From positions 1 through 46,221 of the forward strand of contig JAEUSF010000001.1 of the NCBI GenBank assembly GCA_016788665.1: 46,221 nucleotides of DNA. The letters run 5' to 3'. Both the position numbers and the translations under genes were made by a program. The first letter of the stretch is position 1. Each line of letters opens with the position of its first letter. Positions 3,186 to 31,991 of this stretch are shown here, one piece after another. The stretch comes from Candidatus Doudnabacteria bacterium. Its GTDB lineage: Bacteria; Patescibacteriota; Doudnabacteria; UBA920. The notes beneath the pieces are model-generated. The model did no database searches. It was not told where the DNA came from and saw nothing but the letters and a program-made list of their open reading frames with translations.

Positions 3186-3237
3186 ATTTACAAATTAACA
3201 ATTTTAAGGCAAAATGTTTTTAGGAACCGGGGGGTAG

Positions 3238-3744
3238 ATGAAAATCCTAAAGACTGTCTTGACACTAGGAATTTTGCTTTCAGTGCTGCTGAGCCTCAGG
3301 ATCTACTACCTTAGGCCAGTTATAGAAATCACAGGCAGTAAGGCCTGTCTGCCTGAACACCTGCACCACAAAACACACACTGACTGGGAGTTTAAAAAAC
3401 AAACCCCCTGGCACACTAACGTAATCTGTGATCACGGTCCGCCCCTGCAAGTTTGGGGTAACCAGGACTACTGGTCTGTGGCAGAAAACAAAAGAATAGG
3501 CCCAAAACCCATACCACGCCCAGGTGAGTGGCAGCTATCCCGAAAAACTTTTCCGACCCATAAAGGTCCGCGAGACCTGTACTACTTCGCATTCACCGTT
3601 CATATATTTGGCGAATGGTACCACTTCCGGGTAGCGGAATTTAGATGGGACGACGTAGACGGTTACTACATCTTTTTCTCCGCAGCAAGCAAGTTTCTGC
3701 CCATTGCCTGGGAAAGACTCCTGTGGCATCGCCAAAACGGCTAA
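3238..3744 (+). CDS. hypothetical N-terminally membrane-anchored or secreted protein (His/Trp/Pro-rich)
   Basis: 168-aa ORF with the hydrophobic N-terminus MKILKTVLTLGILLSVLLSL. A G-rich SD (CCGGGGGGTAG) sits directly before the ATG. It is visibly more G+C-rich than its neighbours and is followed by a terminator. Confidence 0.6.
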   Translation: MKILKTVLTLGILLSVLLSLRIYYLRPVIEITGSKACLPEHLHHKTHTDWEFKKQTPWHTNVICDHGPPLQVWGNQDYWSVAENKRIGPKPIPRPGEWQLSRKTFPTHKGPRDLYYFAFTVHIFGEWYHFRVAEFRWDDVDGYYIFFSAASKFLPIAWERLLWHRQNG

Positions 3745-13827: not shown

Positions 13828-15150
13828 TTAAATAATCTCGGTATTTTTTAACACATCCTTTACCACAACTACATCGTCCCACTCTACACGCTTATTGCCT
13901 GGCAAAATTAAAAATTGTTCACTGCCCTTACCGGTAATTAAAAGTATGTCGTTAGCTTTTGCCATTTTTATAGCATCGGTAATTGCGTACCTACGGTCCA
14001 AATGTTTTATGACCTGCTTTGCTTTTAGAGCATCGCCATTAACCTGCCTTACCCCTTCCTCGATGTCTTCCGCAATCTTTTCTGGATCACTTTCATAGAC
14101 ATCGTCATTTGTAATGACAATCACATCGGCTAGTTGAGCTGAAATCTGTCCAAATAAAAAACGCTTTTGAATATCACGGTGACCGCCCGTCGAACCAAAC
14201 ACGTGAATAATCCGGTTATGAGGCATTGCATTTACTGCGCCCAAAGCCGCCCTAATAGAAACTGGCTCGCAGCCATAGTCAACAAATATTTTAAAGCCTT
14301 TTTCATTTTTTACTTCTTCCATTCGGCCCCGGATTCCAATAAAATTGCTTAACACCTTAGATGAAAATTCCAAACCCACACCTAACTTATGCGCCGCCAC
14401 CACAGCCAACAAAGCATTGTACAAATTAAATTCTCCTGGCAATTTGACCTCAAAATTTACGTCATTTAAAACAAAACCTCCGCTTATTTGTTTAGCATTA
14501 TAAACAGCAACCGGCTTTTCTGAAACAAACTTATTAAAACCTGCTGCGATTTTATGTTTTGCCTCGAACCCCAAAAACCATTCAGCATTTTCATCGTCTG
14601 AATTTACCAAACTAATTTGCATACCCCTCGGACTTAAAGCGGAAAAAAGCTTGCCTTTTGCTGACCGATAACCTAAAAATCCACCATGCGCCTCCAAATG
14701 AGCTTGCGACAAATTTGTAAGCACCACAACGTCGAACTTAATACCCAAATGCCTATTCTGCATAAGCCCTTCGGAAGTACACTCTACAACGGCAAACTGG
14801 CAGCCGTTCTCTACAATCTGTTTAAGTTGCTTCTGCAATAGCCACCCACCAGGCATAGAAAGTCCGTGCCGATTTATAAGCTCATTGTCCCCGTCAAAAA
14901 AACTCACAGTTGTAACAAACCCACACTTATACTTGTCGCCACCCTCTTGTTTATTGGTATTGTTTAAAATATGTGCGAGTATTTGCACAGTTGTCGACTT
15001 ACCGGCCGTACCAGTAACCCCCACTACTTTAAGTTTTAAACTAGGCCGACCAAAATACCAGCTTGCAATATAAGCGACACAGCCGTGGTAAAGCGGCCTT
15101 AAAAATTTAAACAAATTAGCGGGAATAATTTTTTTAATTAAATTCTTCAT
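13828..15150 (-). CDS. Mur ligase family protein (MurE-like UDP-N-acetylmuramoyl-tripeptide synthetase)
   Basis: P-loop VVGVTGTAGKSTT, central-domain and C-terminal blocks DYGCEP and ITGKGSEQ. Confidence 0.85.
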   Translation of the reverse strand: MKNLIKKIIPANLFKFLRPLYHGCVAYIASWYFGRPSLKLKVVGVTGTAGKSTTVQILAHILNNTNKQEGGDKYKCGFVTTVSFFDGDNELINRHGLSMPGGWLLQKQLKQIVENGCQFAVVECTSEGLMQNRHLGIKFDVVVLTNLSQAHLEAHGGFLGYRSAKGKLFSALSPRGMQISLVNSDDENAEWFLGFEAKHKIAAGFNKFVSEKPVAVYNAKQISGGFVLNDVNFEVKLPGEFNLYNALLAVVAAHKLGVGLEFSSKVLSNFIGIRGRMEEVKNEKGFKIFVDYGCEPVSIRAALGAVNAMPHNRIIHVFGSTGGHRDIQKRFLFGQISAQLADVIVITNDDVYESDPEKIAEDIEEGVRQVNGDALKAKQVIKHLDRRYAITDAIKMAKANDILLITGKGSEQFLILPGNKRVEWDDVVVVKDVLKNTEII

Positions 15151-19338: not shown

Positions 19339-19899
19339 CTATTTCCCAAGTAATTTAAGAGCCTCTTTTATTTGTTCACCCGTTGACTTTGACGCATCTA
19401 GTTTGTGTATTATGGTCCTAATTTCGCCCTGCTTATAGCCTAATGCAATAAGAGCGTCAAAAACCTCACCCGTTGTCCCCGACGAAGAATCAAGAGAAGA
19501 AAACTTCCCAACTTTGCTTTTTAATTCCAAAATAATTTTTTCTGCAGTTTTAGTACCAACACCCGAAATTCTGGTAAACACACCCACATCCTGATTTGCA
19601 ACCGCCGACTGCACCGCCTCTGCTCTAGAGGCTGAAAGTATAGCTAAGGCCATTTTTGGTCCTACGCCGCTAACTGTTATTAACATTTCGAAGAACTGCA
19701 AAGTTTTAAAGTCAGGCAAACCAAAAAGACTCTGTTCATTTTCGGCCACTTTTAAGTAAGTAAATATTTCAAGCGGTTCCCCAATCTTTTTTTCCAAAAT
19801 ATCAGGAGTAACAAAAACTTTATAGCCCAACCCTTGATTTTCCAGTATTAAAAAACTGGAAGTTTTTTCAATTACCCGGCCTTTTATGTAAGCAATCAT
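19339..19899 (-). CDS. ruvA: Holliday junction branch migration complex subunit RuvA
   Basis: N-terminal MIAYIKGRV, HhH motifs SGVGPKMAL and ISGVGTKTAEKI, and a C-terminal domain III. Confidence 0.93.
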   Translation of the reverse strand: MIAYIKGRVIEKTSSFLILENQGLGYKVFVTPDILEKKIGEPLEIFTYLKVAENEQSLFGLPDFKTLQFFEMLITVSGVGPKMALAILSASRAEAVQSAVANQDVGVFTRISGVGTKTAEKIILELKSKVGKFSSLDSSSGTTGEVFDALIALGYKQGEIRTIIHKLDASKSTGEQIKEALKLLGK

Positions 19900-19931
19900 G
19901 TTACCAATAAATAAATTCTTTAATCAAACGT

Positions 19932-19960
19932 ATTTTAGCAGTGCGTGGAGATATTGACAA
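19932..19960 (-). promoter_or_regulatory. candidate ruvA promoter TTGTCA-17-TAAAAT
   Basis: Reverse complement of TGACAA at 19955-19960 and of ATTTTA at 19932-19937. Confidence 0.45.
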
Positions 19961-19980
19961 AAACCCTCGTATAATATAGA

Positions 19981-20392
19981 ATGTTGGAACTTTGGAAACC
20001 TGCACGAGAGACAACGTTCAAAAGACGAGCGCAGGTTTCCATGAAGGGCGGGATCGTCCTCCGCTTTCCCGCCCTTCTGCAAAGATTTCAGTTCGGGAGC
20101 CGCGACTGGTCCTTTATCCCTTCGAGGACCATAAACCGCGGCCTCCCAGCCGAAGAAGTCCTCGAGCCCAGCTCGGACACTTCGGCACCCAGAGCCGCTT
20201 CGGCGACAACATGCACATTTCCCTTTCGCTCTCTTTAGGGGAACAGCACGTCGCCGAAGCGGCCACAACTTAAACGAGGAATTCATCTTTCAAAAAAAAG
20301 ATCTGTTAGCGTCCCTTCATCCAGATGAATCCCTCTCCTTGCGGAGGTCGGACATGGCTTAAAACCAATTCCGACCTCCGCTTCTTTCGTTA
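19981..20392. ncRNA. G+C-rich, helix-dense non-coding element (unclassified structured RNA or uvrB leader)
   Basis: Contains at least 9 perfect or near-perfect inverted repeats of 6-14 bp. The only ORFs are mutually overlapping and not protein-like. There is a sharp G+C jump relative to the flanks. The terminal hairpin 20341-20352/20370-20381 is followed by TTCTTTCGTT on the plus strand. Confidence 0.6.
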
Positions 20393-20419
20393 ATAAGTCA
20401 ATGTTATAAAATGTTAGCC

Positions 20420-22471
20420 ATGCAATTTAAGTTAATTTCAAAATTTAAGCCTTCTGGAGACCAGCCTCGCGCAATCGATGGACTGCTTAAGTCTATAAAA
20501 GAAAAAAACCGCTACCAAACTCTTCTTGGAGTAACCGGTAGCGGCAAGACTTTTACCATGGCCAATATTATAGAAAAATTACAAAGACCGGCTTTAATAA
20601 TTTCTCACAACAAAACTTTAGCCGCTCAACTTGCCAGCGAGTTTCAAGAATTTTTTCCAGATAACGCTGTGCACTATTTTGTTTCCTATTATGACTACTA
20701 CCAGCCGGAAGCCTACCTACCCCGCTCCGACACATTTATTGAAAAAGAAACCCAAATTAACGAAGAAATTGACCGCCTAAGAAATGCCGCAACCCAAAAC
20801 CTGCTTTCCCGCAAAGACGTCATTATTTGCGCTTCAGTTTCCTGTATATATGGCCTTGGAAACCCGGCTGACTACTTAGACTTGTCTATTTATATAAAAA
20901 AGGGCGAAGACTATAAGCGAGACAAGCTTATAAGAAGACTTACTGACTTACAGTACAAAAGAAACGACCTGGAATTACAAAGAGGTACTTATAGAGCACA
21001 AGGCGATGTATTAGAAATAATACTCTCTTCCGAAGACACAATAGTTCGTATGGACTTTTTTGGCGACACCTTAGAAAGAATAGAAAGACTCGATGCGGTT
21101 TCCGGACACTTAATAGAACCTCTGGAAGAATTTACAATTTTTCCCGCTAAACACTTTGTTACTCCGGAAGATAAATTAAAAAATGCTGCCGAAAGCATTC
21201 GTAACGAACTTATAGATAGGTTAAGGCTATTTAAGTCTCAAGGTAAACTTCTAGAAGCACAACGTCTAGAACAAAGAACCAATTTTGATTTGGAAATGCT
21301 GCAGAATACTGGCTTCGTCTCAGGAATAGAAAACTATTCAAGACACATGGATGGACGAGCTGCCGGCGATCCACCCTCAACTCTAATAGACTACTTCCCA
21401 GACGATTTTTTACTGTTTATAGACGAATCACACCAAACCATTCCTCAAATTGGAGCCATGTACGAGGGGGATAAATCTCGTAAAACAACTTTGGTTGACT
21501 ATGGTTTTAGACTCCCTTCAGCATTGGACAACAGGCCTCTTAAGTTTAACGAATTTATTGGCAAAATTAACCAATGTGTTTTTGTCTCAGCCACTCCTGC
21601 GCCCTTTGAAATACTTACAACGGCAAACCAAAAAACTCCCAAGCCATCCCCCGACCTTAAATTAGAGGTTGCTAAAATCAAACCAACAAAATCTATAGTT
21701 GAGCAGCTTATCCGTCCAACAGGACTCCTTGACCCGACCATAGAAATAAAACCCATAAAAAACCAAGTAGATGACCTGGTAGAGCGCATAAAAGAAAGAA
21801 TATCAAACCACCAGCGTATTTTGGTTGCAACCCTAACCAAACGCATGGCAGAAGAATTAACCGAATATTTAAAAGAAGAAGGCATAAAAGTCCAGTATGT
21901 TCATAGCGACGTTGACACCTTCGATCGACTGGAAATTTTGCGTGACTTAAGATTGGGTATTTTTGACGTGCTTGTCGGAATCAATCTTTTACGCGAAGGA
22001 CTAGACTTACCCGAAGTATCTTTGGTTGCCATTCTAGATGCAGACAAAGAAGGCTTTTTAAGAAGCGAAACCTTTTTTATGCAAATGATGGGCAGAGCCG
22101 CCAGACACTTAGAAGGCCATGTTGTTATGTACGCTGACCGCATAACAGGCTCCATGCAAAGAGCTATAGAAGAAACCACACGTAGACGCAAGGTCCAAGA
22201 AGCTTATAACAAAAAACATGGCATAACTCCAAGCGGAGTAAAAAAAGCTATCGCAGACTCTAGGCTCGCCGGCAGTAAACACGAAGTTTTGGACACAACA
22301 AATAGGGACCGTGACCCTATGAAAATGAACAAAGAAGAGCTCAGGTTTTACATAAACGAGCTTGAAGAACAAATGGATTTGGCTTCAAAAAATTTGGAAT
22401 TTGAAACCGCTGCTAAAATAAGAGACAGGCTAGCTGAAATAAAAACCCTAAAAAGAATAAAGAAAAGTTAA
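20420..22471 (+). CDS. uvrB: excinuclease ABC subunit B
   Basis: N-terminus [19 protein letters not shown], Walker A GVTGSGKT and the C-terminal UVR domain ([23 protein letters not shown]). An alternative ATG lies at 20411. Confidence 0.96.
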
Positions 22472-22557
22472 GACAACCAGATAAAGTTTATTTTATTTTA
22501 AGGTTCAAAATTTGATTATTCTCAAACCCCTTAACCCCATGTCAAGTCCCCTATGTC

Positions 22558-22585
22558 TTGACATAACGCTTATGTAAGCTAAAAT
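22558..22585 (+). promoter_or_regulatory. promoter TTGACA-16-TAAAAT
   Basis: TTGACA at 22558-22563 and TAAAAT at 22580-22585. The -35 lies in the inverted repeat ATGTCAAG/CTTGACAT. Confidence 0.5.
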
Positions 22586-22660
22586 ATTTTGGTAACATTA
22601 CCGTCCTTCCTATGGGCCGGTTTTTGTTTCTAAAACATCTACAACTACAAGGAGAGGGAA

Positions 22661-23314
22661 ATGCTCTGGATGACTCTGGTTATGAGCTTTTGCGCCTTCG
22701 GCCAGGAGCCAACAAACCACGGAAGCGCGCCGGTCTCAAACTCTTTCTTCCGCTGGCAGGCGCCGGCGGTTGCAGTGGAAGTGTTGGGATCAAGTGCATT
22801 TAGCCGGCTGTCGGCTTACGCGCAGTTCGGCAAACTGCGTCTGACAGGCGCCACGGTGCGCTCGGAAGGCCATAGCTTTCAGCAGATAACCACAGGCTGG
22901 GTCTTCGCTCCTCTAAAGAGCGAGGAAACCGAGTTCTTTATTGAACCCTTCGTGGGTTCCGCCTTGACTCGGGAAGGTTCCAGGCTGGCAGCAGGAGGGA
23001 GGTTCGTATACCTCTCTAAAAATTGGTTCCTCGAAAACTGGACCACCAAGTACGGTGGTCACAACGGCTGGACTAACTGCGAACCCCTCATGGACGTCAT
23101 GAGACACGTGGGAAAAGGGTTCTATGTGGGAGCAGCTTCCAGCTGCTACGTTGGAACCGAACACCACGAAGAAAAAGCCGAGCGTCATGCTCACTTTTTT
23201 GCGGGACCCGGCATGCTATACCGGCGAGGGAACCTTGACGTGGGAGCTTCGTACGAGTTTCAACTAAGAGGCAACCAGAAATTCTGGGCGGTATTTGGCA
23301 CCTACACATTTTAG
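22661..23314 (+). CDS. secreted beta-barrel-like protein, G+C-rich (paralog of 39329-39862)
   Basis: SD AAGGAGAGGGAA before the ATG. Signal peptide MLWMTLVMSFCAFGQE. Alternating hydrophobic pattern and a C-terminus ...FWAVFGTYTF that ends in Phe. Confidence 0.7.
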   Translation: MLWMTLVMSFCAFGQEPTNHGSAPVSNSFFRWQAPAVAVEVLGSSAFSRLSAYAQFGKLRLTGATVRSEGHSFQQITTGWVFAPLKSEETEFFIEPFVGSALTREGSRLAAGGRFVYLSKNWFLENWTTKYGGHNGWTNCEPLMDVMRHVGKGFYVGAASSCYVGTEHHEEKAERHAHFFAGPGMLYRRGNLDVGASYEFQLRGNQKFWAVFGTYTF

Positions 23315-23499
23315 TGAGCCAACCGCTCGCTTAAGGACTTTAAAGTTTGAAACATAACTTAGAAGTCCTTTTTTATTTGGGCTTGTTTTTTTTAGTGAAT
23401 TTTGCTAAAATCATTTTATCTTACAAACCAATTCGGGTGTCGCTGAGTTGGCCAAAAAAGACAACTAACCACTAAATACTAGCTCCCAGCAACTAAACC

Positions 23500-23772
23500 A
23501 TGCCAAATACTAAATCTGCCATAAAAGCAGCTCGCCAAAACATAAAACGGCGTGCTCAAAACGTCTTAAAAAAAGACGCGTTAAAAGCCGCGGTTAAAGA
23601 AGTTAGAAAACTTATAGCCGCTGGCAAACAGTCCGAGGCTGCCGCTGCCATGAAAAAAGCCATGAAAGCTTTAGACAAAGGCGCCAAAGGCCGAGTCATT
23701 CACAAAAATAAATCCTCCAGACTAAAAAGTCGCTTGGCAAAAGCGATTACAAAAATAAAAACCGTCGCGTAA
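23500..23772 (+). CDS. rpsT: 30S ribosomal protein S20
   Basis: MPNTKSAIKAARQNIKRRAQN is a typical S20 N-terminus. The protein is 90 aa and basic. Confidence 0.95.
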   Translation: MPNTKSAIKAARQNIKRRAQNVLKKDALKAAVKEVRKLIAAGKQSEAAAAMKKAMKALDKGAKGRVIHKNKSSRLKSRLAKAITKIKTVA

Positions 23773-23790
23773 GCGATGGTTTTTATTTTT
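23761..23790 (+). terminator. rho-independent terminator of rpsT
   Basis: Stem ACCGTCGC/GCGATGGT followed by TTTTTATTTTT. Confidence 0.7.
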
Positions 23791-23802
23791 GTATATTACA
23801 GA

Positions 23803-24810
23803 TTACTTAATTAGATTCACAACCAATCCCACCATAACTTCTTTTTCTTTTGGATCACTCTCAGCAATAAGCAAAGCCAGTGCAGTTAAAGTATTATCAT
23901 TTATTTTTCTCTCACCCCTTTTGTCGTACAAAAAATTATTTTCCACCAAATAAAGCAAAAAAGTTAAGGCGCCAATCCGCTTGTTTCCGTCAACAAAAGG
24001 ATGGTCCTTAATTAAAAAATATAAAAGATGCGCGGCTTTTTCTTCCACAGAAGGATACAGGTCTTTCCCCGTAAAAGTTTGGTTTATATTGCCCAAAACT
24101 GCCTTAAATTTGTTCCCCACTTCCTGACCAAATAAACTCCCCGCTTCCTTTTGACTTACAAGCCTCTGCTTAAATTTAGAAATAGAGCCGAGCAAAGTTT
24201 CGTAATTCAAAGCCGGGCCTGCTCTTTTACTTAAACCTTCCAAACTTAGCTCGCCTTTGTCATAAGCATTTAGCAAAAACCACGTATCGGCATAGTCAGA
24301 AATTATGCTAAGCAGCTCTTTTTCATAACCCTCTAGTCGTTTTGAAGCAACAGCTTTTTGAATAAGCTTATGAGCACTCTCTAGCTCTTTTAGCTTTACT
24401 TTTAAGTTTTTTAAATCCTTCAGGCGTTCTTCATTTATAGCAAAGCCTTTTAATAAGTAATCCTTAAGTCTTTTAGTAGCCCAAATACGAAACTGGGTTG
24501 CCCGAGCAGAGTTTACCCTATACCCAATAGAGATAACCATATCCAAGTTATAGTATTCTACTCTTCTCTTCACGTCTCTAAGCCCCTCTTTTTGAACTAT
24601 TTCCAAAATGGAAACAGTTGATTTTTGGCTTAGTTCAGCGGACTCATAGATATTTTTTACGTGCTTTGAAATTGCTGCTTTTTGAACACTAAAAAGCGCA
24701 GCTATCTGATTTTGAGTCATCCAAACTGTTTCTCCGTCAATTTGTAAAGACAGCTCGGGTCCACTAACAGCCTTATATATTATAATTTCACCTTTTTTTG
24801 TTTCTTCCAT
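23803..24810 (-). CDS. RhuM-like N-terminal domain fused to a Fic/Doc domain
   Basis: The N-terminal block QNQIAALFSVQKAAISKHVKNIY...ISIGYRVNSARATQFRIWATK resembles RhuM-family virulence proteins. The C-terminal Fic/Doc motif is HPFVDGNKRIGA. Confidence 0.85.
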   Translation of the reverse strand: MEETKKGEIIIYKAVSGPELSLQIDGETVWMTQNQIAALFSVQKAAISKHVKNIYESAELSQKSTVSILEIVQKEGLRDVKRRVEYYNLDMVISIGYRVNSARATQFRIWATKRLKDYLLKGFAINEERLKDLKNLKVKLKELESAHKLIQKAVASKRLEGYEKELLSIISDYADTWFLLNAYDKGELSLEGLSKRAGPALNYETLLGSISKFKQRLVSQKEAGSLFGQEVGNKFKAVLGNINQTFTGKDLYPSVEEKAAHLLYFLIKDHPFVDGNKRIGALTFLLYLVENNFLYDKRGERKINDNTLTALALLIAESDPKEKEVMVGLVVNLIK

Positions 24811-24827
24811 ATATTTTTATATTAAAA

Positions 24828-24855
24828 ATATAACTATACGTTTGTATAGTTATAT
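24828..24855. promoter_or_regulatory. 12-bp-arm perfect palindrome upstream of the Fic/Doc gene
   Basis: ATATAACTATAC GTTT GTATAGTTATAT. TATACGTTT is also directly repeated, at 24835-24843 and 24858-24866. Confidence 0.45.
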
Positions 24856-24883
24856 GGTATACGTTTATTCACCCAAAGTCAAT

Positions 24884-25219
24884 TTATTTTGCAGATAATT
24901 TAGCCAAAATCTTCTCTTTCAATTCTTCCATAGTGGAAATATGATTAAGCTCGTAAGCGTCCATAATCCTTTGCAAACCATGCGGATGTTTTATAAAAAC
25001 TGCCGGCAGCTCAGTTCCAGCGGTTTCAGGAAACTCTAAGAAAAAATCTGGCCGATGATAAAAATCTATATCATAAGGCAAATCTTGGACTAAATCTTTA
25101 TGCTCACTTTCAAGCTCAGCCAAAGAAGGATTTTTTTGGTATCTATGCAAACGTTGCGCAGCAAGCTCAAAAACCGTAGCGTTACCATTGTAAACAAAAA
25201 TTAATTTAGGGTTTTCCAT
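24884..25219 (-). CDS. hypothetical 111-aa protein, translationally coupled to the upstream HD-domain gene
   Basis: ORF with a 2-nt gap to the HD gene stop codon. No motif was recognised. Confidence 0.55.
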   Translation of the reverse strand: MENPKLIFVYNGNATVFELAAQRLHRYQKNPSLAELESEHKDLVQDLPYDIDFYHRPDFFLEFPETAGTELPAVFIKHPHGLQRIMDAYELNHISTMEELKEKILAKLSAK

Positions 25220-25221
25220 AT

Positions 25222-25887
25222 TTAAAATTTATATTTTTTTAATTCTATCACAACCGGAGCCAAACTCTCTTCTGTAATATACTCGGGCAGAGTTTTAGTG
25301 GTTGTAAAAATTTGTTTTTCAATTTCGCGCAGCAATTGCTCAAACTTAAGCCGGTCATTTTCTGTCCCACCAACAGCCAATCTCTTGGCTTCATATCTGG
25401 ACCGCAAGTCGGCAAACCTTTCCTCCAAACTCGCCACCCCTCTGGGTGTTACCCGCATATCTGCATAAGCACATATTTGTTTACCCAAATCACCCGAATT
25501 TAAATTACTTTCTGCTTGGTTAAAGCCCACGCAATCAACTAATTCTTCAATCCTTTTTTCTACACCCAACTCCTTTACAATTTGGATAGTCGCGCTATGC
25601 TCATCTTTTCCGTAAATACTTATGTACTCTGTCTTAACTTTTTGCCAATAGTCTAAATCGATACCAGTATTTACAAGCGACACAGTTTGAGCAAAGTCGA
25701 ATTTTATAATATTTCCCATATCATGGAGCAAACACGCGAGCACTACATCCGCTTTTTGCTGGCCTGAAAACACCCCCAATTCAACAAGTTTGCCAGAAAT
25801 TATACTAGCCACTGCCGCCACCCTAAACTGATGATCGGCCAATTGCGGCATAATTTTGTATTTTTTATATACTTCTAAAATTTCCAT
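25222..25887 (-). CDS. HD-domain phosphohydrolase family protein
   Basis: H...RVA at the N-terminus and the LLHDMGN motif. Confidence 0.75.
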   Translation of the reverse strand: MEILEVYKKYKIMPQLADHQFRVAAVASIISGKLVELGVFSGQQKADVVLACLLHDMGNIIKFDFAQTVSLVNTGIDLDYWQKVKTEYISIYGKDEHSATIQIVKELGVEKRIEELVDCVGFNQAESNLNSGDLGKQICAYADMRVTPRGVASLEERFADLRSRYEAKRLAVGGTENDRLKFEQLLREIEKQIFTTTKTLPEYITEESLAPVVIELKKYKF

Positions 25888-25923
25888 AAAACGTTAAAAA
25901 TTTAAATCAGCTTATATTATAGC

Positions 25924-25948
25924 AAAAACCCGCCCTTAAGGCGGGTTT
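25924..25948 (-). terminator. rho-independent terminator after the 90-aa ORF
   Basis: Stem ACCCGCC/GGCGGGT, followed by a U-run in the minus-strand sense (AAACCCGCCTTAAGGGCGGGTTTTTGC). Confidence 0.65.
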
Positions 25949-26002
25949 AAATATAAAACACGTTTTTAAATTTTTTCACTTTTTTCCCTAAGTTTTAATT
26001 TT

Positions 26003-26275
26003 TCAAGCGAATCGTAATTCCAGTCCACGCTGCTCTTTTATTTTTTCTAGTTGATATCTAAAAGGTTTGTACATAAAAAGCTGGAATTTACCCAAGTATT
26101 TTTTTAAATCCGCCCTTACATCATCCGAGCTTTTAATATGTTTAACTTCTATTTTTTTGTTAAACCCCATATTGCCTAGCACAAAAACCCCTGGGGTTTT
26201 TGGCGTGACTAACTTTTCTATGTTGGAAGGATTAAGAATATAAGGCTTAAACCAACCTTTATTTTGCTTTTGCAT
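26003..26275 (-). CDS. hypothetical 90-aa protein (weak GIY-YIG-like N-terminal pattern)
   Basis: Strong SD GAGAGGGGGTGTGGA before the ATG, with its own promoter-like TTGACA...TATACT and its own terminator. The pattern PGVFVLG...VKHIKSSDDVRADLKKYL is only loosely GIY-YIG-like. Confidence 0.5.
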   Translation of the reverse strand: MQKQNKGWFKPYILNPSNIEKLVTPKTPGVFVLGNMGFNKKIEVKHIKSSDDVRADLKKYLGKFQLFMYKPFRYQLEKIKEQRGLELRFA

Positions 26276-26345
26276 TCCACACCCCCTCTCTGTTTCTTAC
26301 TTATAAAGTATAATTTTAGAGTATACAATCGTACACCTTTTGTCA

Positions 26346-26390
26346 AGCAAAAAATACCTCTAAAAGCTTTACCAAAGAGGTATTTTTTGT
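26346..26390 (-). terminator. rho-independent terminator of polA
   Basis: Stem ATACCTCT/AGAGGTAT with a T-run on each side. Confidence 0.65.
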
Positions 26391-26414
26391 TTTATTTACT
26401 ACATAACAGTTTTT

Positions 26415-29267
26415 TTAAACCGAAACAGGCTCCATATTACCCCAGCTATCCCCCACTTTGGCTTCCACTTTTATGGGAATAGAAAGACTAAGAGCCTCTT
26501 CCATAAAAACTTTCAACATCTTAGCATAATGCATAACCATGTCTTCTTTCACCTCAAACACAAGTTCATCATGCACCTGTAGCAGCATTTTAATATCTAA
26601 TTCACTGTTTTTCTTACTCTCTAACTCTCTATGTATGTTAATCATTGCAACTTTTATAACATCCGCCGCTAAAGACTGAATAGGAAAATTAATTGCGGCT
26701 CTTTCCGCTGCCGCACGAATAAAGAACTGCGAAGAACGTATTTCCGGAAATTTTCTCATGCGACCGAGTTCGTTTTTTACAAACGCTGTCTGGTTTACCT
26801 GGAGTTTAACATTTTCCATATACTCCTCTACTTGAGGGTAAGCTGCAAAATATTTTTCAATAAACCTCTTAGCCTCCGCTCTGTTAACTTCACCTATTCT
26901 AGAAGACAAGCCAAAGCTGGACACCCCGTACAAAATACCAAAATTTATAGTTTTTGCATCTCTACGCATATCTTTAGTCACTTTGTCAGCCGGCACATTA
27001 AAAATTTCCACAGCGGTTTTGGAATGAATATCTTCGTCTTTTTGAAAAACTTCCAGCATTTTTTTGTCCTTAGCCAAATGAGCAACTATACGGAGCTCTA
27101 TCTGTGAATAATCCAAAGACAAGAGCTTAAAACCTTTTTCTGCAACAAAAGCCTTCCTCACCTGGCTACCCAAACCATCCCCTTTGACCGGAATGTTTTG
27201 CAAGTTAGGGTCTGTGGAAGAAAGTCGCCCGGTTGCTGCGATGGTTTGGTTATAACTAGTATGAAGTCGCCCGGTCTTTTTAGAAACTTGGCCAGGCAAA
27301 GTAGTTAAGTAAGTGCTATAAAGCTTTGTCACTTCCCTATATTCCAAAATTTTTGGCACTATTTCATGTTGCCCAAGCATTTTTTCCAAATTACCTGCGG
27401 CAGTGGAAATACCAGTTTTGGTTTTTCGGTTTTCTATAGGCTCAAGCCCTAACTTCTCAAACAATATTTTCTTTAATTGCAACGGCGAATTTATATTAAA
27501 TTCTTCTCCAGCTAGTTTATGAATTTTTTTCTCCAGGTCTTTTATATCTATTTCAGCTTCGCTTGCTAATTTGTTTAAAAATTTAGTATCAAGCTTTATA
27601 CCATTTAGCTCCATATCTCTTAAAACGGAAACAAGAGGCATCTCAATATCGTAAAAAACTTTTTCCAAACCCTGTTTTTTTAGTTCCGGCTCAAAAATAC
27701 CTTTTAGCCTCAACGTCATATCTACATCTTCGCAGCAATACCAAGAAACCTTTTCAGGCGCGACCTTATCCATGGTAATTTGGTTTTTACCCTTGCCAAT
27801 AAGTTCTTCTATAGGCTGCATTTGGTAGCCTAATTCGTTAAAAGCCAAAGCATCCAAGCCATGCTGGCGGGTACCAGCATTTAGCAAATAGGAAGCCAAC
27901 ATGGTGTCAAAAGTAGCACGTAGCTGGTAACTGGTAGCGAGTAGGACCTGAAGGTCGTATTTAATATTGTGCCCAACTAGTTTTACTTTTTCAGAAGTTA
28001 AAATATTTCTAAGCTCTTCAGAAGCTATAAAAATCTGACTTGGCAAATAAAAAGCCTTACCCGCTGCCACACAAATTCCAACTCCAACTAATTTTGCCTC
28101 GGTCACATTTAGACTTGTGGTTTCTGTGTCTATACAAATTTCTTTCGCACCAGAAATTTCTTTAAGCATTTTGTGAAGCTTCTCTTCTGTGTCCACCAGT
28201 TCATAGTCCTGCTTACCAATCTCCCCAGAAAACTCTCTTACCCGCTCTCCTACTTCCTGACTCATACTTCCTGACTCCTCCCCTTTGGGTAACTTCGCCA
28301 ACAAACTCTTAAACTCTAACCTCTGAAAAGTTTTAACAGTCTGCTGTAAATTATCACCTTCTAAAACATAAGGCTTAATGTCTTCGTGTATCCCCGGAAC
28401 ATCGCATACAATCTGCGAAAGCTCGTAAGACAAACGGGCTTCTTTTTCCTGTTCAACCAGCAGACTTATAATTCTTGGTTTGATATTTGAAATTTTATAT
28501 TTATTTGGTATTTGAAACCCGCCTTGACCGACAGTTCGGGCAGGTTTAGGATTTGTAATTTCTGTTCCTATTTCCTTAAGCTCCTTGTGTAAGGTTTGAT
28601 ACAAATTATCTATGCTTCCAAATTCTTTTATAATATTAGCCGCGGTTTTCTCCCCTATTCCCTTAACGCCTGGAATATTGTCAGAAGGGTCACCCCTTAA
28701 AGCCTTATAGTCCACCATTTGGCTGGGTAAAAGGCCGTAGCGTTCACGCACGGCGCGTGCGTCGTAAACCACGGTGTCTGTTAAACCTTTTCTCGGTGTG
28801 TAAACTTTTACCTTGCTATTTACCAGCTGCAAAGTGTCCATGTCTCCGGTCAATATAAATATTTCTGCGTTGTCATGCGAGCTGTCATGAAGCTGTTTAG
28901 AAAGCGTGCCTAAAACATCGTCCGCCTCATACCCCTGTTTTTCGTAAATTGGTACATTCATGCCACGTAAAACTTCTTTTATAACCGGGATTTGGTCATA
29001 AAGCTCCTGAGCTGCTTTAACACGAGTACCTTTATACTCTTTATACTTTTCATGTCTAAACGTAGGCCCGGCTAAGTCAAAAGTCGCAGCTACATGCGTG
29101 GCTTTTATATCCTTCATGGCCTTTAAAAATATGGTCAAAAAACCAAACACGGCCCCGGTCGGTTTTCCGTCTTTGGTAGTAAGTCCAGGCAGTGCGTGGA
29201 ACGCTCTGTGCACCAAGGCATTGCCGTCTATAAGCAAATATCTGATTTTGGCCTTTTGTTCCGTCAT
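26415..29267 (-). CDS. polA: DNA polymerase I (5'-nuclease, 3'-5' exonuclease and polymerase domains)
   Basis: 5'-nuclease N-terminus LLIDGNALVHRAFHA, Exo I motif ICIDTETTSL, and polymerase motifs DYSQIELR, RRDAKTINFGILYG and QVHDELVFE. Confidence 0.97.
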   Translation of the reverse strand: MTEQKAKIRYLLIDGNALVHRAFHALPGLTTKDGKPTGAVFGFLTIFLKAMKDIKATHVAATFDLAGPTFRHEKYKEYKGTRVKAAQELYDQIPVIKEVLRGMNVPIYEKQGYEADDVLGTLSKQLHDSSHDNAEIFILTGDMDTLQLVNSKVKVYTPRKGLTDTVVYDARAVRERYGLLPSQMVDYKALRGDPSDNIPGVKGIGEKTAANIIKEFGSIDNLYQTLHKELKEIGTEITNPKPARTVGQGGFQIPNKYKISNIKPRIISLLVEQEKEARLSYELSQIVCDVPGIHEDIKPYVLEGDNLQQTVKTFQRLEFKSLLAKLPKGEESGSMSQEVGERVREFSGEIGKQDYELVDTEEKLHKMLKEISGAKEICIDTETTSLNVTEAKLVGVGICVAAGKAFYLPSQIFIASEELRNILTSEKVKLVGHNIKYDLQVLLATSYQLRATFDTMLASYLLNAGTRQHGLDALAFNELGYQMQPIEELIGKGKNQITMDKVAPEKVSWYCCEDVDMTLRLKGIFEPELKKQGLEKVFYDIEMPLVSVLRDMELNGIKLDTKFLNKLASEAEIDIKDLEKKIHKLAGEEFNINSPLQLKKILFEKLGLEPIENRKTKTGISTAAGNLEKMLGQHEIVPKILEYREVTKLYSTYLTTLPGQVSKKTGRLHTSYNQTIAATGRLSSTDPNLQNIPVKGDGLGSQVRKAFVAEKGFKLLSLDYSQIELRIVAHLAKDKKMLEVFQKDEDIHSKTAVEIFNVPADKVTKDMRRDAKTINFGILYGVSSFGLSSRIGEVNRAEAKRFIEKYFAAYPQVEEYMENVKLQVNQTAFVKNELGRMRKFPEIRSSQFFIRAAAERAAINFPIQSLAADVIKVAMINIHRELESKKNSELDIKMLLQVHDELVFEVKEDMVMHYAKMLKVFMEEALSLSIPIKVEAKVGDSWGNMEPVSV
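27913..27947. repeat. heptamer array GTAGCAC GTAGCTG GTAACTG GTAGCGA GTAGGAC inside polA
   Basis: Five period-7 units, translated on the minus strand as VLLATSYQLRATF. Confidence 0.8.
28251..28278. repeat. 14-bp direct repeat x2 inside polA
   Basis: TACTTCCTGACTC occurs at 28251-28263 and 28265-28277. It is translated as EESGSMSQEVG. Confidence 0.85.
28476..28562 (-). mobile_element. in-frame repeat-derived insertion in polA, with an internal hairpin
   Basis: Encodes EITNPKPARTVGQGGFQIPNKYKISNIKP in the linker after the 5'-nuclease domain. It shares GAAATTAC..AAATCC with the valS array and a 17-mer with 12646-12662. The hairpin 28515-28523/28539-28547 has a G.U pair in the mRNA sense. Confidence 0.55.
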
Positions 29268-29320
29268 GTAAAATTTCTATTTAAACTTTATAAGGGCATT
29301 ATACAAGAATATAAGACAAA

Positions 29321-29349
29321 TAAAAAAGGGCACAACTTTACGTTGTGCC
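29321..29349 (-). terminator. rho-independent terminator of the small ORF
   Basis: Stem GGCACAAC/GUUGUGCC followed by CUUUUUUAUUU in the minus-strand sense. Confidence 0.75.
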
Positions 29350-29361
29350 ATGACCGTTGGA

Positions 29362-29490
29362 TTAGTGGGTCAAGTGCGGCCCCGGCGGAAAGGGCTCGAA
29401 GTCGTGCTCCAAGCCTGGGCATCCGCACCCAGGCCCGCACGCCAGGGCCAACATGGCCCCTAAAAAAAACACCGTCAACATTTTTTTCAT
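29362..29490 (-). CDS. 42-aa secreted or lipoprotein-like Cys/Gly/Pro-rich peptide (not in the ORF track)
   Basis: My translation is MKKMLTVFFLGAMLALACGPGCGCPGLEHDFEPFPPGPHLTH. The SD AAAGGTGAT sits 5 nt before the ATG and a strong terminator lies just downstream. The ORF is G+C-rich. Confidence 0.6.
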   Translation of the reverse strand: MKKMLTVFFLGAMLALACGPGCGCPGLEHDFEPFPPGPHLTH

Positions 29491-29637
29491 TGTATCACCT
29501 TTTGGTGGTATCCTAAGTTGCAACTACCTTAGGGGAAATTAAATACTAACTATAATAATCAATTTTCCCTAAGCTAGAACTTAAAACTATTTCATCCTTT
29601 AAATTCCTACAGATTTTATCTTATTCATAAGAAAAAG

Positions 29638-30213
29638 TCAAGCATTCCACTCATGGTCCCGCATAGCCTTTAGCATATGTCCGGCAAATGTTTTTACGGA
29701 TAAATCGGACTTTGTAAGTTCCTCTAGAATACTTTCAAACTGCCGCCATTTTAAGTATGGCACGGTTTCCAAAGTGGTTACAAAAATTTCTTTCTTGCTT
29801 TCCTGCATGGCCTTAACCAAAACCTTAAAACACTCCGGATTAAAATCTTCAAAAGCAAAAACATAACCCAGCTTTTTTATGGCTTGAATTTTTTCTGTTT
29901 CGTTTTCACTTTGGGCAAATTTTAGAATATCTTCCTTATTTTCCAAAGGTAAAATATTTTGTAAATATTCTAGAGCATCACTCATAATCACCGCCCTAAC
30001 TTCCAAATAGTTTACACCAATTCTTTCGTCTACCACGTAAAGCAAATACAAGTCCAAAGGTTTATGCTGCCAATGGATTTGATACGGCTCACCCGAACTT
30101 GCTAAAACTTCCTTTGTTTCTACCCAATCCTCTTTTTGGGCAATTTGTTTTAAATCTTCCAAGCTAAAATCTTCTGTAAAAACCAAATTTTTTCTTGTGT
30201 AAATATTTCGCAT
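29638..30213 (-). CDS. hypothetical cytoplasmic protein
   Basis: ORF of 191 aa counted from the ATG at 30213 (the ORF track starts at the TTG at 30219). AT-rich, native-like composition. No motif was recognised. Confidence 0.6.
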   Translation of the reverse strand: MRNIYTRKNLVFTEDFSLEDLKQIAQKEDWVETKEVLASSGEPYQIHWQHKPLDLYLLYVVDERIGVNYLEVRAVIMSDALEYLQNILPLENKEDILKFAQSENETEKIQAIKKLGYVFAFEDFNPECFKVLVKAMQESKKEIFVTTLETVPYLKWRQFESILEELTKSDLSVKTFAGHMLKAMRDHEWNA

Positions 30214-30267
30214 ACCCAAATTCTAACGCAGAGGGCCGTCCTCTGTAAATGGTTAGGGATTACTGAG

Positions 30268-30300
30268 TTATGGATTACGGATGGGTACTGATATACGGAT
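30268..30300 (+). repeat. solo copy of the 33-nt repeat module that flanks the GxxExxY ORF
   Basis: TTATGGATTACGGATGGGTACTGATATACGGAT compared with 31521-31553 TTATAGATTACAAATTGGTACAGATATACAGAT: 27/33 identical by my alignment. Confidence 0.75.
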
Positions 30301-30312
30301 AAAAATTTTGCA

Positions 30313-30356
30313 ATAAAAAAAAGCCGCCAAGTCACAATTAAGTGAGCCTTGGCGGC
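30313..30356 (-). terminator. rho-independent terminator of the 282-aa secreted-protein gene
   Basis: Stem GCCGCCAAG/CTTGGCGGC (9 bp) followed by UUUUUUUUAUUG in the minus-strand sense. Confidence 0.8.
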
Positions 30357-30411
30357 CATGTAATCCTCGCAGTCAGAGTTTACGAGCCTGCTGAGGAAGA
30401 AAAGTTGGACC

Positions 30412-31260
30412 TTATGGAAAAACGGATGAGGAGGACCCGTTTCCAATTATCCCACGCCTCAAGGTAAACGTCTCCTTCAGACCCCCGAAGTTTACCACAA
30501 TGTCATACGCCGCCGCTGTAGGGTTGCCCAAGGGGAAAGGAAAATAAATCCTGCTGAGAGTACCGTTTCCAGCCTGAACCTTCAACACAGCTGGAATAAA
30601 AGCGTAAAAGAAGTTAGGCTGCCCAAACGCCACCATAGTGGAGTCGTCGGGAAACACCCCTTCCAAAACAACCGTTTGTGTGTTTCCGCTTTCAACAACC
30701 TTTGCGCTGTCGAGGTGATAGGGTGTACGCCCCCTGTATCCCGCCGTTACAACATAGTAACGGCAGAATATTTGTTGTAAAATCTGGCCGCCGGGCGAGC
30801 GAGCTATCACAACGTCAAATAGCACGCTATGGCCTTGCTGCTGCTCGGGCGACACCCGCCCGGTATACACAGGAATGGCTGGGAGCGTGGGAAGTTTTTC
30901 AAAGTGCCCGAAAAGCCCACCCTCAACACTAAACCAGGCTTCGCTCATAAGCGAACCGTCTAGGTTGAAATGCCGGCGACGTCCGTAAACGTCCACCGAC
31001 CCTTCCGGAATTCTGCCCGGGGCTAAATCCAAAAATAACCTCACCTCCTCACCCGGCTGCGCGAACTCCCCAACACTACTTCGAAGGAGCGCAAAATTTA
31101 ACGGTACAACACTAAGCCCTCGGCCGTTTTTCGCGGCCTCAGGCCGTTCGCATTCCTGCCCGCAGTTCTTGTAGAACTGCTCAGCAGTCATACGATCCTG
31201 CCCAAACATCGCGCTGGCCAAGGCCAGCGAAAAAAGAACAAGCGTGATAACGAGGCGCAT
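30412..31260 (-). CDS. secreted hypothetical protein, G+C-rich
   Basis: SD AGGGGGGTG 6-7 nt before the ATG. Signal peptide MRLVITLVLFSLALASAMFGQD. 282 aa and rich in beta-strand-type sequence. Confidence 0.7.
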   Translation of the reverse strand: MRLVITLVLFSLALASAMFGQDRMTAEQFYKNCGQECERPEAAKNGRGLSVVPLNFALLRSSVGEFAQPGEEVRLFLDLAPGRIPEGSVDVYGRRRHFNLDGSLMSEAWFSVEGGLFGHFEKLPTLPAIPVYTGRVSPEQQQGHSVLFDVVIARSPGGQILQQIFCRYYVVTAGYRGRTPYHLDSAKVVESGNTQTVVLEGVFPDDSTMVAFGQPNFFYAFIPAVLKVQAGNGTLSRIYFPFPLGNPTAAAYDIVVNFGGLKETFTLRRGIIGNGSSSSVFP

Positions 31261-31295
31261 TTTAGCACCCCCCTAAGCAAAGGTTCCCAAACGAC

Positions 31296-31384
31296 TTCTT
31301 TGGGTCAAGCTAGGCATTAAAACATGTTACTTGTTACGTGTTACATGTCACGTGTCACGCTGACACCCAACTCGACCCAAAGAA
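31296..31384 (-). promoter_or_regulatory. long-range 11-bp stem in the 5' UTR, enclosing a heptamer array
   Basis: TTCTTTGGGTC at 31296-31306 pairs perfectly with GACCCAAAGAA at 31374-31384. Confidence 0.5.
31324..31365. repeat. heptamer array ATGTTAC TTGTTAC GTGTTAC ATGTCAC GTGTCAC GCTGACA
   Basis: Five to six period-7 units. In the minus-strand sense they read GTGACAC GTGACAT GTAACAC GTAACAA GTAACAT. Confidence 0.9.
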
Positions 31385-31458
31385 TCTAACTCTTCTTTAA
31401 AATCCCCCTTAAAATACATAAAAAGAACGGTTACGCCTAATATAAAACGTAACCGCAC

Positions 31459-31487
31459 ATTATACACTATTTTCTTAAAAATGTCAA
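31459..31487 (-). promoter_or_regulatory. promoter TTGACA-17-TATAAT for the 282-aa gene
   Basis: Reverse complement of TGTCAA at 31482-31487 and of ATTATA at 31459-31464. It implies a 5' UTR of about 190 nt. Confidence 0.55.
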
Positions 31488-31520
31488 TAAGTTTTTACAA
31501 AAAGCTCTCAAATGTAAGGA

Positions 31521-31987
31521 TTATAGATTACAAATTGGTACAGATATACAGATAAATACAAGCAATAACCTAGTATAAATTTACAATGCGTTTAAACCTT
31601 ACCCCTTCTTTACCAAAATACACCAATAGCCCTAACTGCAAATTTAAGGCTTCTAAATATTTGAAGGTCTGCTCAATATTGGCCCTAGAAAAATGAACAT
31701 CTCGTTTTATTTCTAAAACTAATTTTTCTTCAATAAAAAAATCCAAATAGTACTTGCCTACTTGGATATCTTTATAATTCAAAACTACCGGAAATTGCTC
31801 AACAAAATTTATTTTTCTTTGCCGAAATTCGACCGCCAAAGCTTTCTGATAATGCTTTTCCAGCAAACCAGACCCTAGATTATTATGCACTTCAAACAAT
31901 GACCCTATTATCTGCTTTGTCAGGTCGGCATAAATTAATTTTTCTGTATCCATATCTGTATATTTGTAATTAATCCGTAATCTATAA
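31521..31987. mobile_element. 467-bp cassette: a GxxExxY-type ORF bounded by ~33-nt imperfect terminal inverted repeats
   Basis: The left repeat is 31521-31553. The reverse complement of the right repeat, 31954-31987, matches it at 28 of 34 aligned columns. The shared blocks are TTATAGATTAC and ATATACAGAT. Confidence 0.55.
31570..31953 (-). CDS. GxxExxY-family (PD-(D/E)XK-like) protein
   Basis: 127 aa with GSGLLEKHYQKAL (GxxExxY) and the D...E.K-like block YLDFFIEEKLVLEIK. Confidence 0.8.
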   Translation of the reverse strand: MDTEKLIYADLTKQIIGSLFEVHNNLGSGLLEKHYQKALAVEFRQRKINFVEQFPVVLNYKDIQVGKYYLDFFIEEKLVLEIKRDVHFSRANIEQTFKYLEALNLQLGLLVYFGKEGVRFKRIVNLY

Positions 31988-31991
31988 ACCC

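Follow-up and report, generated by a model that had tools for sequence, protein, structure and literature searches.

Two described systems are among the closest to the locus reported here. In Staphylococcus aureus RNAIII, hairpin loops carrying UCCC pair with the Shine-Dalgarno (SD) regions of target mRNAs (PMC4615179). The cuckoo RNAs consist of modular adjacent hairpins, the stems of which are free to vary and the loops of which display an anti-SD-like motif; their sequence is unconserved past the genus, with the genomic neighbourhood being kept (PMC4615179). The element analysed here is the gap between the DNA-repair genes ruvA and uvrB in a 46,221-nt stretch of DNA from an uncultured Candidatus Doudnabacteria bacterium (~39% G+C; hereafter the window). 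This 400-nt gap most probably constitutes a gene of its own, encoding a non-coding RNA (ncRNA) of very high stability that belongs to no known family. We hold with higher confidence both that it is a stand-alone plus-strand gene for an ncRNA of ~400 nt, its transcription, strand and termination being predicted from sequence features, and that this RNA is one instance of a lineage-specific, fast-turnover class in Doudnabacteria-like Patescibacteria. The best explanation as a whole, i.e. an independent ncRNA gene whose product acts in trans against ribosome-binding sites (RBSs), has in our view about an even chance of being correct.

Over 20000-20299 the G+C fraction, taken in 200-nt intervals, is 0.55-0.60, compared with a mean of 0.39 for the window. 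A preliminary description, made by a model from the letters and a list of open reading frames (ORFs), had reported that the spacer is richer in G+C than its flanks and had listed eleven stems; the enrichment is confirmed and all eleven stems are found where it placed them. Ten of the eleven have fully Watson-Crick arms. The arms of stem 20095-20104/20137-20147 are of unequal length, leaving a 1-nt bulge with pairs that are all Watson-Crick, and stem 20276-20288/20323-20335 has, as described, a single mismatch, which is A.C on the plus strand. RNA folding of the plus strand of 19988-20395 gives -178.2 kcal/mol, whereas its dinucleotide shuffles average -116.2 +/- 5.7, i.e. z = -10.8; by the same comparison z is -7.8 for the minus strand. 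These 408 nt contain 4 perfect inverted repeats with arms of 10 bp or more and loops of up to 60 nt, against 0.013 expected and a maximum of 1 in 300 shuffles, and no other 408-nt stretch of the 46 kb has three or more of them. The predicted RNA and its hairpins are as follows.

19989-20391, plus strand: predicted ncRNA, ~400 nt, 54% G+C, with seven main hairpins (H1-H7).
19993-20041, plus strand: H1, a perfect 11-bp stem with a 27-nt loop.
20043-20077, plus strand: H2, a perfect 11-bp stem with a 13-nt loop, UCGUCCUCCGCUU, at 20054-20066.
20094-20147, plus strand: H3, a 10-bp stem with a 1-nt bulge, enclosing an inner 6-7 bp hairpin with the loop UUUAUCCCUUCG.
20149-20186, plus strand: H4, stacked stems of 7, 4 and 4 bp.
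20194-20263, plus strand: H5, a perfect 14-bp stem around a 5-7 bp hairpin with a C/U-rich loop.
20276-20335, plus strand: H6, a 13-bp stem with one A.C mismatch (20280/20331) and a 34-nt loop.
20341-20391, plus strand: H7, terminator-like, a 12-bp G+C-rich stem followed by the U-rich tail CUUCUUUCGUU.

The H2 loop UCGUCCUCCGCUU exposes CCUCCG, which is similar to the anti-SD sequence, and the 5' arm of H6 contains the SD-like GAGGAA (20276-20281). The minimum free energy (MFE) fold adds 3 bp to the 12-bp stem of H7.

The two flanking genes, ruvA (19339-19899, minus strand) and uvrB, are divergent, and three predicted promoters lie around the element.

19932-19960, minus strand: ruvA promoter, with -35 TTGTCA (19960-19955), a 17-nt spacer and TG-extended -10 TAAAAT (19937-19932).
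19954-19982, plus strand: RNA-gene promoter, with TTGACA, a 17-nt spacer and TAGAAT, matching 11/12 consensus positions and pointing to uvrB.
20403-20422, plus strand: uvrB promoter and start, with the extended -10 TGTTATAAA (20403-20410) and ATG 20420.

The ruvA promoter motif TATTTTAGCA (minus strand: TGCTAAAATA) is kept beside ruvA in relatives. The layout of the RNA-gene promoter, from which the RNA is predicted to start at ~19989, recurs as TTGACAAAA plus a -10 element at the equivalent site in ~20 relatives, and relatives also have a stem with a U7-8 run at the position of H7. The preliminary description had left the transcribed strand unresolved; the promoter with 11/12 consensus positions, the terminator-like H7 and the same layout in ~20 syntenic relatives now assign it, in silico, to the plus strand. 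The features expected of an independent small RNA or ncRNA gene, namely its own promoter and Rho-independent terminator, are likewise found in silico. When strand was judged from wobble asymmetry across the class, 7 G.U pairs were counted against 4 A.C, a difference that does not settle the strand. The divergent promoters of ruvA and of the RNA have their -35 hexamers in the same 7 bp (19954-19960, read as TTGACAA and TTGTCAA on opposite strands), so the two promoters may compete for RNA polymerase.

The start of uvrB needs a correction, as alignment with relatives places it at ATG 20420 and not at the first ATG, at 20411. The extended -10 TGTTATAAA stands 9 nt before this ATG and ~20 nt past H7; uvrB is therefore predicted to be transcribed separately, from its own promoter, into an mRNA that is leaderless or nearly so. 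This -10 element (TGKTATGAT in relatives) is conserved with long and short spacers alike, including in relatives that have no element.

The ORFs in the element (19981-20238 and 19992-20273 on the plus strand, 19924-20286 on the minus strand, together with two that are shorter) overlap mutually and have a high content of Arg, Pro and Ser; they have no Pfam match and lack an SD sequence, a plausible start codon or a plausible RBS. The 120-residue minus-strand ORF has no relative in a word search of 5.8 billion proteins, and the 93-residue plus-strand ORF has none among 1.84 billion representatives scanned in full with HMMER; the earlier judgement that these ORFs are not protein-like and lack SD sequences thus holds. 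Covariance-model searching, which the preliminary description had proposed as a check, assigns the element to no family: with Rfam 15 the whole window has 0 matches at the gathering score, and at E<=10 with relaxed filters the region 19850-20500 gives only single-hairpin chance matches (11-24 bits, the cut-offs being 31-60) to models of miRNAs and lncRNAs. ARAGORN finds 0 tRNA or tmRNA genes in the 46 kb, the spacer has no T-loop motif, and no riboswitch or T-box model matches the element. These results agree with the preliminary description, which had seen no hallmarks of RNase P RNA, tmRNA, signal recognition particle (SRP) RNA or the cobalamin riboswitch. A literature search on structured RNAs of Patescibacteria (the candidate phyla radiation, CPR) found nothing relevant.

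RuvA places the organism in Patescibacteria, among metagenome-assembled genomes labelled Doudnabacteria or 'Saccharibacteria', with the closest RuvA being only 70% identical. Related loci (numbered L001, L002 and so on), including ~40 syntenic spacers, were compared with the element. The order uvrB<->ruvA->femAB is conserved, with a ruvA-uvrB spacer of 33-1414 nt. In ~20-25 genomes the spacer is long and has a shared layout in the uvrB orientation, consisting of a TTGACAAAA promoter beside the ruvA -10, G+C-rich hairpins, a terminator in the form of a strong stem with U7-8, and the uvrB extended -10 TGKTATGAT. The interiors of these long spacers span 0.4-0.65 kb, have 49-59% G+C and an MFE of approximately -0.35 to -0.49 kcal/mol per nt, and hold no credible ORF. 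The RNA described here is typical of this class in length, G+C content, MFE per nt and helix lengths, and lies, like the best-supported members considered below, between ruvA and uvrB, in the uvrB orientation and with its own promoter and terminator. Other relatives have merely 33-270 nt at the site. The short-spacer genomes L005, L007, L083, L084, L091 and L100 are without the unit, and in L091 it is uvrB that uses this TTGACA, as the -35 of its promoter.

The sequence of the interior is another matter. Between genera the interiors have no similarity; nhmmer and blastn find no homologue of the element among the ~40 syntenic spacers, phage and plasmid collections searched by BLAST and viral contigs scanned for a pattern yield nothing, and Rfam searches of 36 related loci, at gathering and at relaxed thresholds, return only tRNA-like matches in L003, L088 and L093, with nothing for the element. 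The preliminary description had also proposed collecting the spacers of relatives and testing them for covariation; this has yielded a syntenic class, and covariation within one part of it, and no homologue of the present sequence. The nearest relative, L178 (GCA_964523855.1), has 86% protein identity (via the ORF at 22661, which follows uvrB) and ~75% nucleotide identity over 22539-32681, on a contig that does not include ruvA-uvrB. In L178 (1-2709), a TrmB-family gene and a 176-residue ORF replace uvrB upstream of the homologue of ORF 22661, and the junction of uvrB with ORF 22661 is therefore a rearrangement point.

That RNA at this address can be under selection is shown by a family typified by L002 (copy at 3154-3330, minus strand), which also includes L166, L167, L169, L085, L086, L170, L172 and L176. 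Within the cluster of L002, L166, L169 and L167, identity of the RNA exceeds that at 4-fold sites (94% against 78%, and 67% against 56%). An iterated nhmmer profile from this cluster reached L085 and L086 and not the present element. A covariance model (R1; 201 positions, 31 pairs) scores the members at 60-166 bits, including L085, L086, L170, L172 and L176, and scores the present element at 2.0 bits with filters off; most other spacers are also unmatched. Compensatory changes occur in 16 of the 31 pairs, and the covariation includes G.U pairs. Pairing is found in 89% of cells compared with 30-46% in slid controls, and 0/500 shuffles reach the observed values, although these statistics are somewhat inflated because the alignment was fitted to R1. 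The conserved core comprises UAAAGAGGG, an AAGCG...GCUU domain, a CGGGUGG...CCACCCG helix and CUUGGGUGCC...CCCAAG, and the L002-type RNAs, which are not in Rfam, carry two to three CCUCCG hairpin loops. These sequence comparisons show that a genuinely selected structured RNA occupies the ruvA-uvrB site in some lineages; selection at the RNA level holds for the L002-type subclade only, which does not match the RNA described here.

The turnover of the class is best seen in L001, L161 and L162, in which RuvA is 93-97% identical, 4-fold sites are 50-65% identical and the flanks 83-86%. Conserved between these three are their flanks, a 25-nt block (AAUUAAGGAGGAAAAAAUUUUUUG) and their terminator; the interiors (~170-770), in contrast, are unrelated, with Smith-Waterman z values of at most 3.1 compared with more than 50 for simulated neutral divergence. 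The interior has therefore been replaced or is diversifying faster than neutral sites. We conclude with higher confidence that the class interior turns over extremely fast and that the entire unit is missing from some genomes. The genomes of Patescibacteria are tiny and hold very little non-coding DNA; to our knowledge next to nothing is known about the regulatory RNAs of this group. For such genomes, 0.4-0.65 kb of strongly promoted, terminator-bounded and extremely structured sequence kept at one site across genera is costly, and the class is therefore probably functional.

The spacers of relatives have other features of their own. Some units contain tRNA-like genes (L003 1047-1141, minus strand; L088 2164-2236, minus strand; L093 2286-2429, minus strand; L162 spacer ~598-675), which are low-scoring, with odd anticodon loops, a truncated copy consisting of acceptor and T arms only, and an encoded CCA; ARAGORN labels them 'tRNA-???' or misses them. 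The L011 spacer (1-1085) apparently holds two tandem promoter-hairpins-terminator units, with the second promoter at ~738 and its terminator at ~1050. In L001 (~2494-2600), L088, L090, L092, L006, L162 and L103 there is a second copy of the first 10-13 uvrB codons (e.g. MQFKLKSKFQ), located ~100 nt upstream of the true start and followed by a conserved G+C-rich palindrome, CCTTCGCTAAAGCTTCGGCGGACC ('PPSLKLRRT'). The window has no such second copy, which in these relatives looks as if a small insertion at the 5' end of uvrB had duplicated or regenerated the gene start.

Across the class only short motifs persist. An A/U-flanked SD-like block (AAGGAGGA/AAAGAGGG) occurs mid-element in nearly all members, with a weaker version, ACGAGGAAUUC, here at 20274-20284; the reading frames downstream of it are not conserved, no start codon lies at a proper distance, and a MAFFT alignment of 18 elements anchored on this motif reveals nothing else that is alignable. 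A second motif, CCUCC, is enriched in the class (40 occurrences against 15 +/- 3.8 expected) and is the only non-A/U 5-mer prominent in predicted unpaired regions, with 19 loop occurrences in 10/21 folded elements, including the H2 loop of this RNA. On the plus strand of 24 elements CCUCCG occurs 23 times and CGGAGG 5 times, an asymmetry that fits a motif displayed in the loops of a plus-strand RNA. A hairpin loop of L167 and the H2 loop share the 10-mer UCGUCCUCCG, and L002 has a sub-threshold match to the ar14/cuckoo model through CUCCUCC loops.

A possible role for such loops emerges from the use of SD sequences in the window. Housekeeping genes lack them, as judged from the 25 nt upstream of 24 large ORFs (e.g. 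13828-15150, 43086-44183 and 20420). Several of these genes have a TATAAT-like box 6-10 nt before the ATG, and leaderless mRNAs or initiation independent of SD sequences may therefore be widespread in this organism. G+C-rich accessory ORFs for small secreted or lipoprotein-like proteins do have G-rich SD sequences. Such islands, with 52-63% G+C, lie at 22661-23314 (plus), 3238-3744 (plus), 30412-31260 (minus), ~39329-39862 (minus) and, as a 44-codon ORF, ~29350-29485 (minus); their proteins are small, have signal-peptide or lipobox-like N-termini and have no Pfam domain. The ORF at 22661-23314, next after uvrB, has only two relatives in 5.8 billion proteins (86% and 53% identity), and its 5' untranslated region is more conserved than its coding part; on sequence grounds it is a real conserved gene. 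Its C terminus, ...GTYTF, resembles that of a beta-barrel outer-membrane protein, which is odd in a Patescibacteria genome. The start of this ORF is the best predicted target of the RNA, through the following segment.

20319-20353, plus strand: antisense segment complementary to the initiation region (22637-22670) of ORF 22661-23314.

Its core, UCCCUCUCCUUG (20330-20341), pairs perfectly with CAAGGAGAGGGA over 12 nt, with flanking pairs across codons 2-4, and the linker 20336-20340 between H6 and H7 is predicted to be unpaired. The predicted duplex, calculated with intramolecular structure ignored, is at -34.9 kcal/mol the best among 34 initiation regions; the null is -22.3 +/- 2.5, and 0/600 dinucleotide shuffles reach this value.

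What the analysis shows is the anatomy of the sequence, that it is non-coding and outside known families, its synteny and the features of the class. Transcription, strand, termination and, with low confidence, a mechanism we infer as follows. The RNA would be transcribed from the near-consensus sigma-70 promoter back to back with that of ruvA and would end at H7, ~20 nt before the uvrB promoter. Its stable hairpins would serve as a scaffold exposing short C/U-rich single-stranded segments, namely the H2 loop with its CCUCCG, the loops of H3 and H6 with their UCCC, and the linker UCCUU that joins H6 to H7, which could pair in trans with the G-rich RBSs of accessory genes, ORF 22661-23314 being the best predicted target. 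A more far-reaching proposal, which we regard as rather improbable, is that the ruvA-uvrB site is an 'RNA slot', in which a fixed promoter and terminator surround a hairpin-array RNA whose interior outpaces synonymous sites as its motifs persist, with the RNA described here being an allele-like variant tuned, through antisense pairing, to the G-rich RBSs of the similarly variable, G+C-rich accessory genes for secreted proteins. If so, the slot would represent a rapidly co-evolving RNA regulator of surface and secreted proteins in an episymbiont with otherwise SD-free translation.

Several observations weigh against an independent, trans-acting RNA. No search found a homologue of this element's sequence, so there is no covariation for its fold, which is consequently without comparative support. 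The U-tract of H7 is broken (UUCUUUCGUU), and a simple terminator scan made no call there. A full CCUCC is present in one hairpin loop only, and approximately half of the class is without one in a predicted loop. With respect to the candidate target, the 12-nt antisense core is at chance level in BLAST (E = 0.9), all four 12-nt matches lie in or beside G+C-rich islands, 7/12 bases of the core are predicted to be base-paired within H6 or H7, and the core is not fully kept in the RBS of the nearest relative (AAAGAGAGGGAAAAAUG); the pairing of 20319-20353 with ORF 22661 is thus a predicted lead only. Finally, the main stems are perfectly Watson-Crick without G.U pairs, their lone mismatch being A.C on the plus strand, which is the pattern that DNA-level palindromes would give.

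This last point underlies the main rival explanation, i.e. a cluster of palindromes made and kept perfect at the level of DNA by template-switching or by small mobile palindromic elements of REP/BIME or MITE type. Such repeats would accumulate in a permissive gap between divergent promoters, with transcription being incidental and the RNA functionless. The element also has more long perfect stems (5, totalling 60 bp) than any syntenic counterpart (0-3), and the absence of any homologue, the presence or absence of the unit among close relatives and the unrelated interiors next to 93-97% identical RuvA all count in favour of this rival. The composition of the element is harder to reconcile with this explanation. 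There are no direct-repeat families within it, every hairpin is distinct in sequence, BLAST within the window finds no match longer than 12 nt elsewhere in the 46 kb, and neither terminal inverted repeats nor target duplications are seen around it. REP (repetitive extragenic palindromic) sequences and BIMEs are G+C-rich, near-perfect intergenic palindromes that vary between strains, and REP families have many similar copies per genome; here each hairpin is unique and none recurs in 46 kb, so that over this stretch membership of REP, BIME or MITE families is not supported. Further, in ~20 genomes the unit lies between a strong promoter and a terminator of one and the same orientation, a syntenic subfamily is under purifying selection with covariation that includes G.U pairs, and CCUCCG is strand-asymmetric (23 versus 5). 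Overall, we consider an origin of the element as functionless DNA palindromes to be somewhat unlikely. Were it correct, the locus would be a natural case of quasi-palindrome perfection in a minimal genome.

The preliminary description had offered two readings of the plus strand, an RNA and a very long uvrB leader or attenuator; the former is favoured, and the latter we judge very unlikely. As a cis-acting leader, the element would be read from the promoter at 19954, with H7 conditionally terminating or releasing transcription. The element does directly adjoin uvrB in the same orientation, its weak H7 U-tract makes read-through plausible, and the CCUCCGC of the H2 loop, a duplicate of the H7 3' arm, could compete with that arm for pairing to GCGGAGG on the 5' side. 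Evidence to the contrary is the extended -10 TGTTATAAA between H7 and the predicted leaderless start, since this uvrB promoter is conserved whether or not the element is present. In addition, relatives close the unit with strong stems and U7-8 runs, the units of some of them hold tRNA-like genes, and no riboswitch or T-box matches the element.

A highly diverged known RNA (RNase P, tmRNA, SRP, 6S or OLE/GOLLD/ROOL/raiA/HEARO) missed by the covariance models is scarcely credible. The length and stability of the element are within the range of RNase P RNA and tmRNA, tRNA-like genes occur at the site in several relatives, and loose RNase P-like words (GAAGAAGUCC, AGAUGAAU and GGCUUA) run in the order of CR-I, CR-IV and CR-V. 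However, the expected CR-I to CR-V (GAGGAAAGUCC ... ACAGAANCCGGCUUA, forming P4) are not found, and a word search found the loose words in none of the syntenic counterparts; RNase P RNA was rejected because the word pattern is inconsistent across the class. Neither the element nor, apart from the tRNA-like matches, the units of relatives match an Rfam family, even at E<=10 with relaxed filters; ARAGORN finds no tmRNA, and a unit that is missing at this site in several relatives, with an interior that is not kept even inside a genus-level cluster, cannot be an essential ribozyme. Equally hard to credit is a decayed or very small protein gene, i.e. a remnant of a G+C-rich secreted-protein gene or a micropeptide, as, although other G+C-rich islands of the window encode signal-peptide proteins and an SD-like motif recurs mid-element (here GAGGAA, 20276-20281), no start codon is properly spaced from that motif, the ORFs overlap, are Arg/Pro/Ser-rich and lack homologues, the hairpin density is far above that of any coding region of the window, and the possibility of a small ORF following the motif was dismissed, since its frame and length are not kept, the frame not even among members of the L002 cluster.

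If the class is real, it would constitute a new family, or families, of large bacterial ncRNAs outside Rfam, with the interior of an RNA gene diverging faster than synonymous sites inside a conserved frame, and would provide a testable tie between an RNA and the few SD-bearing secreted-protein genes of an SD-less or leaderless genome. The RNA described here resembles the L002-type RNAs in locus, orientation, promoter and terminator frame, size, G+C content, stability and CCUCCG loops; it differs in that the conserved L002-type core is absent from it, R1 scoring 2 bits.

With respect to described RNAs, the sponge RNAs CsrB/RsmZ and CrcZ are comparable in being 0.35-0.4 kb long, with many hairpins, a strong promoter and terminator and poor sequence conservation between genera; they repeat a defined motif (GGA or A-rich CA) many times, whereas no motif occurs more than 3-4 times in the RNA described here. 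The cuckoo/ar14 RNAs of Alphaproteobacteria (RSs0680, NfeR1; RF02344) have 2-4 hairpins in ~100-200 nt, each with CCUCCUCCC in its loop, whereas this RNA is ~400 nt long and has UCCUCCG in one loop (H2), other loops being UCCC-containing or CU-rich only; the ar14 model has no match in the element region of the window at E<=10. From RNAIII (RF00503) the RNA differs in the absence of sequence or covariance-model similarity and of an hld-like ORF, in the phylum, in that its target pairing is only predicted, and in that most genes of this genome are without SD sequences. Like RNAIII, which is ~0.5 kb, it is long and stand-alone, has many stable hairpins and its own promoter and terminator, and combines UCCC or CCUCC in the loops of H2, H3 and H6 with a predicted antisense match to an RBS. 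By analogy, and with low confidence, we therefore suggest that it may be a trans-acting regulator of an RNAIII-like or cuckoo-like type.

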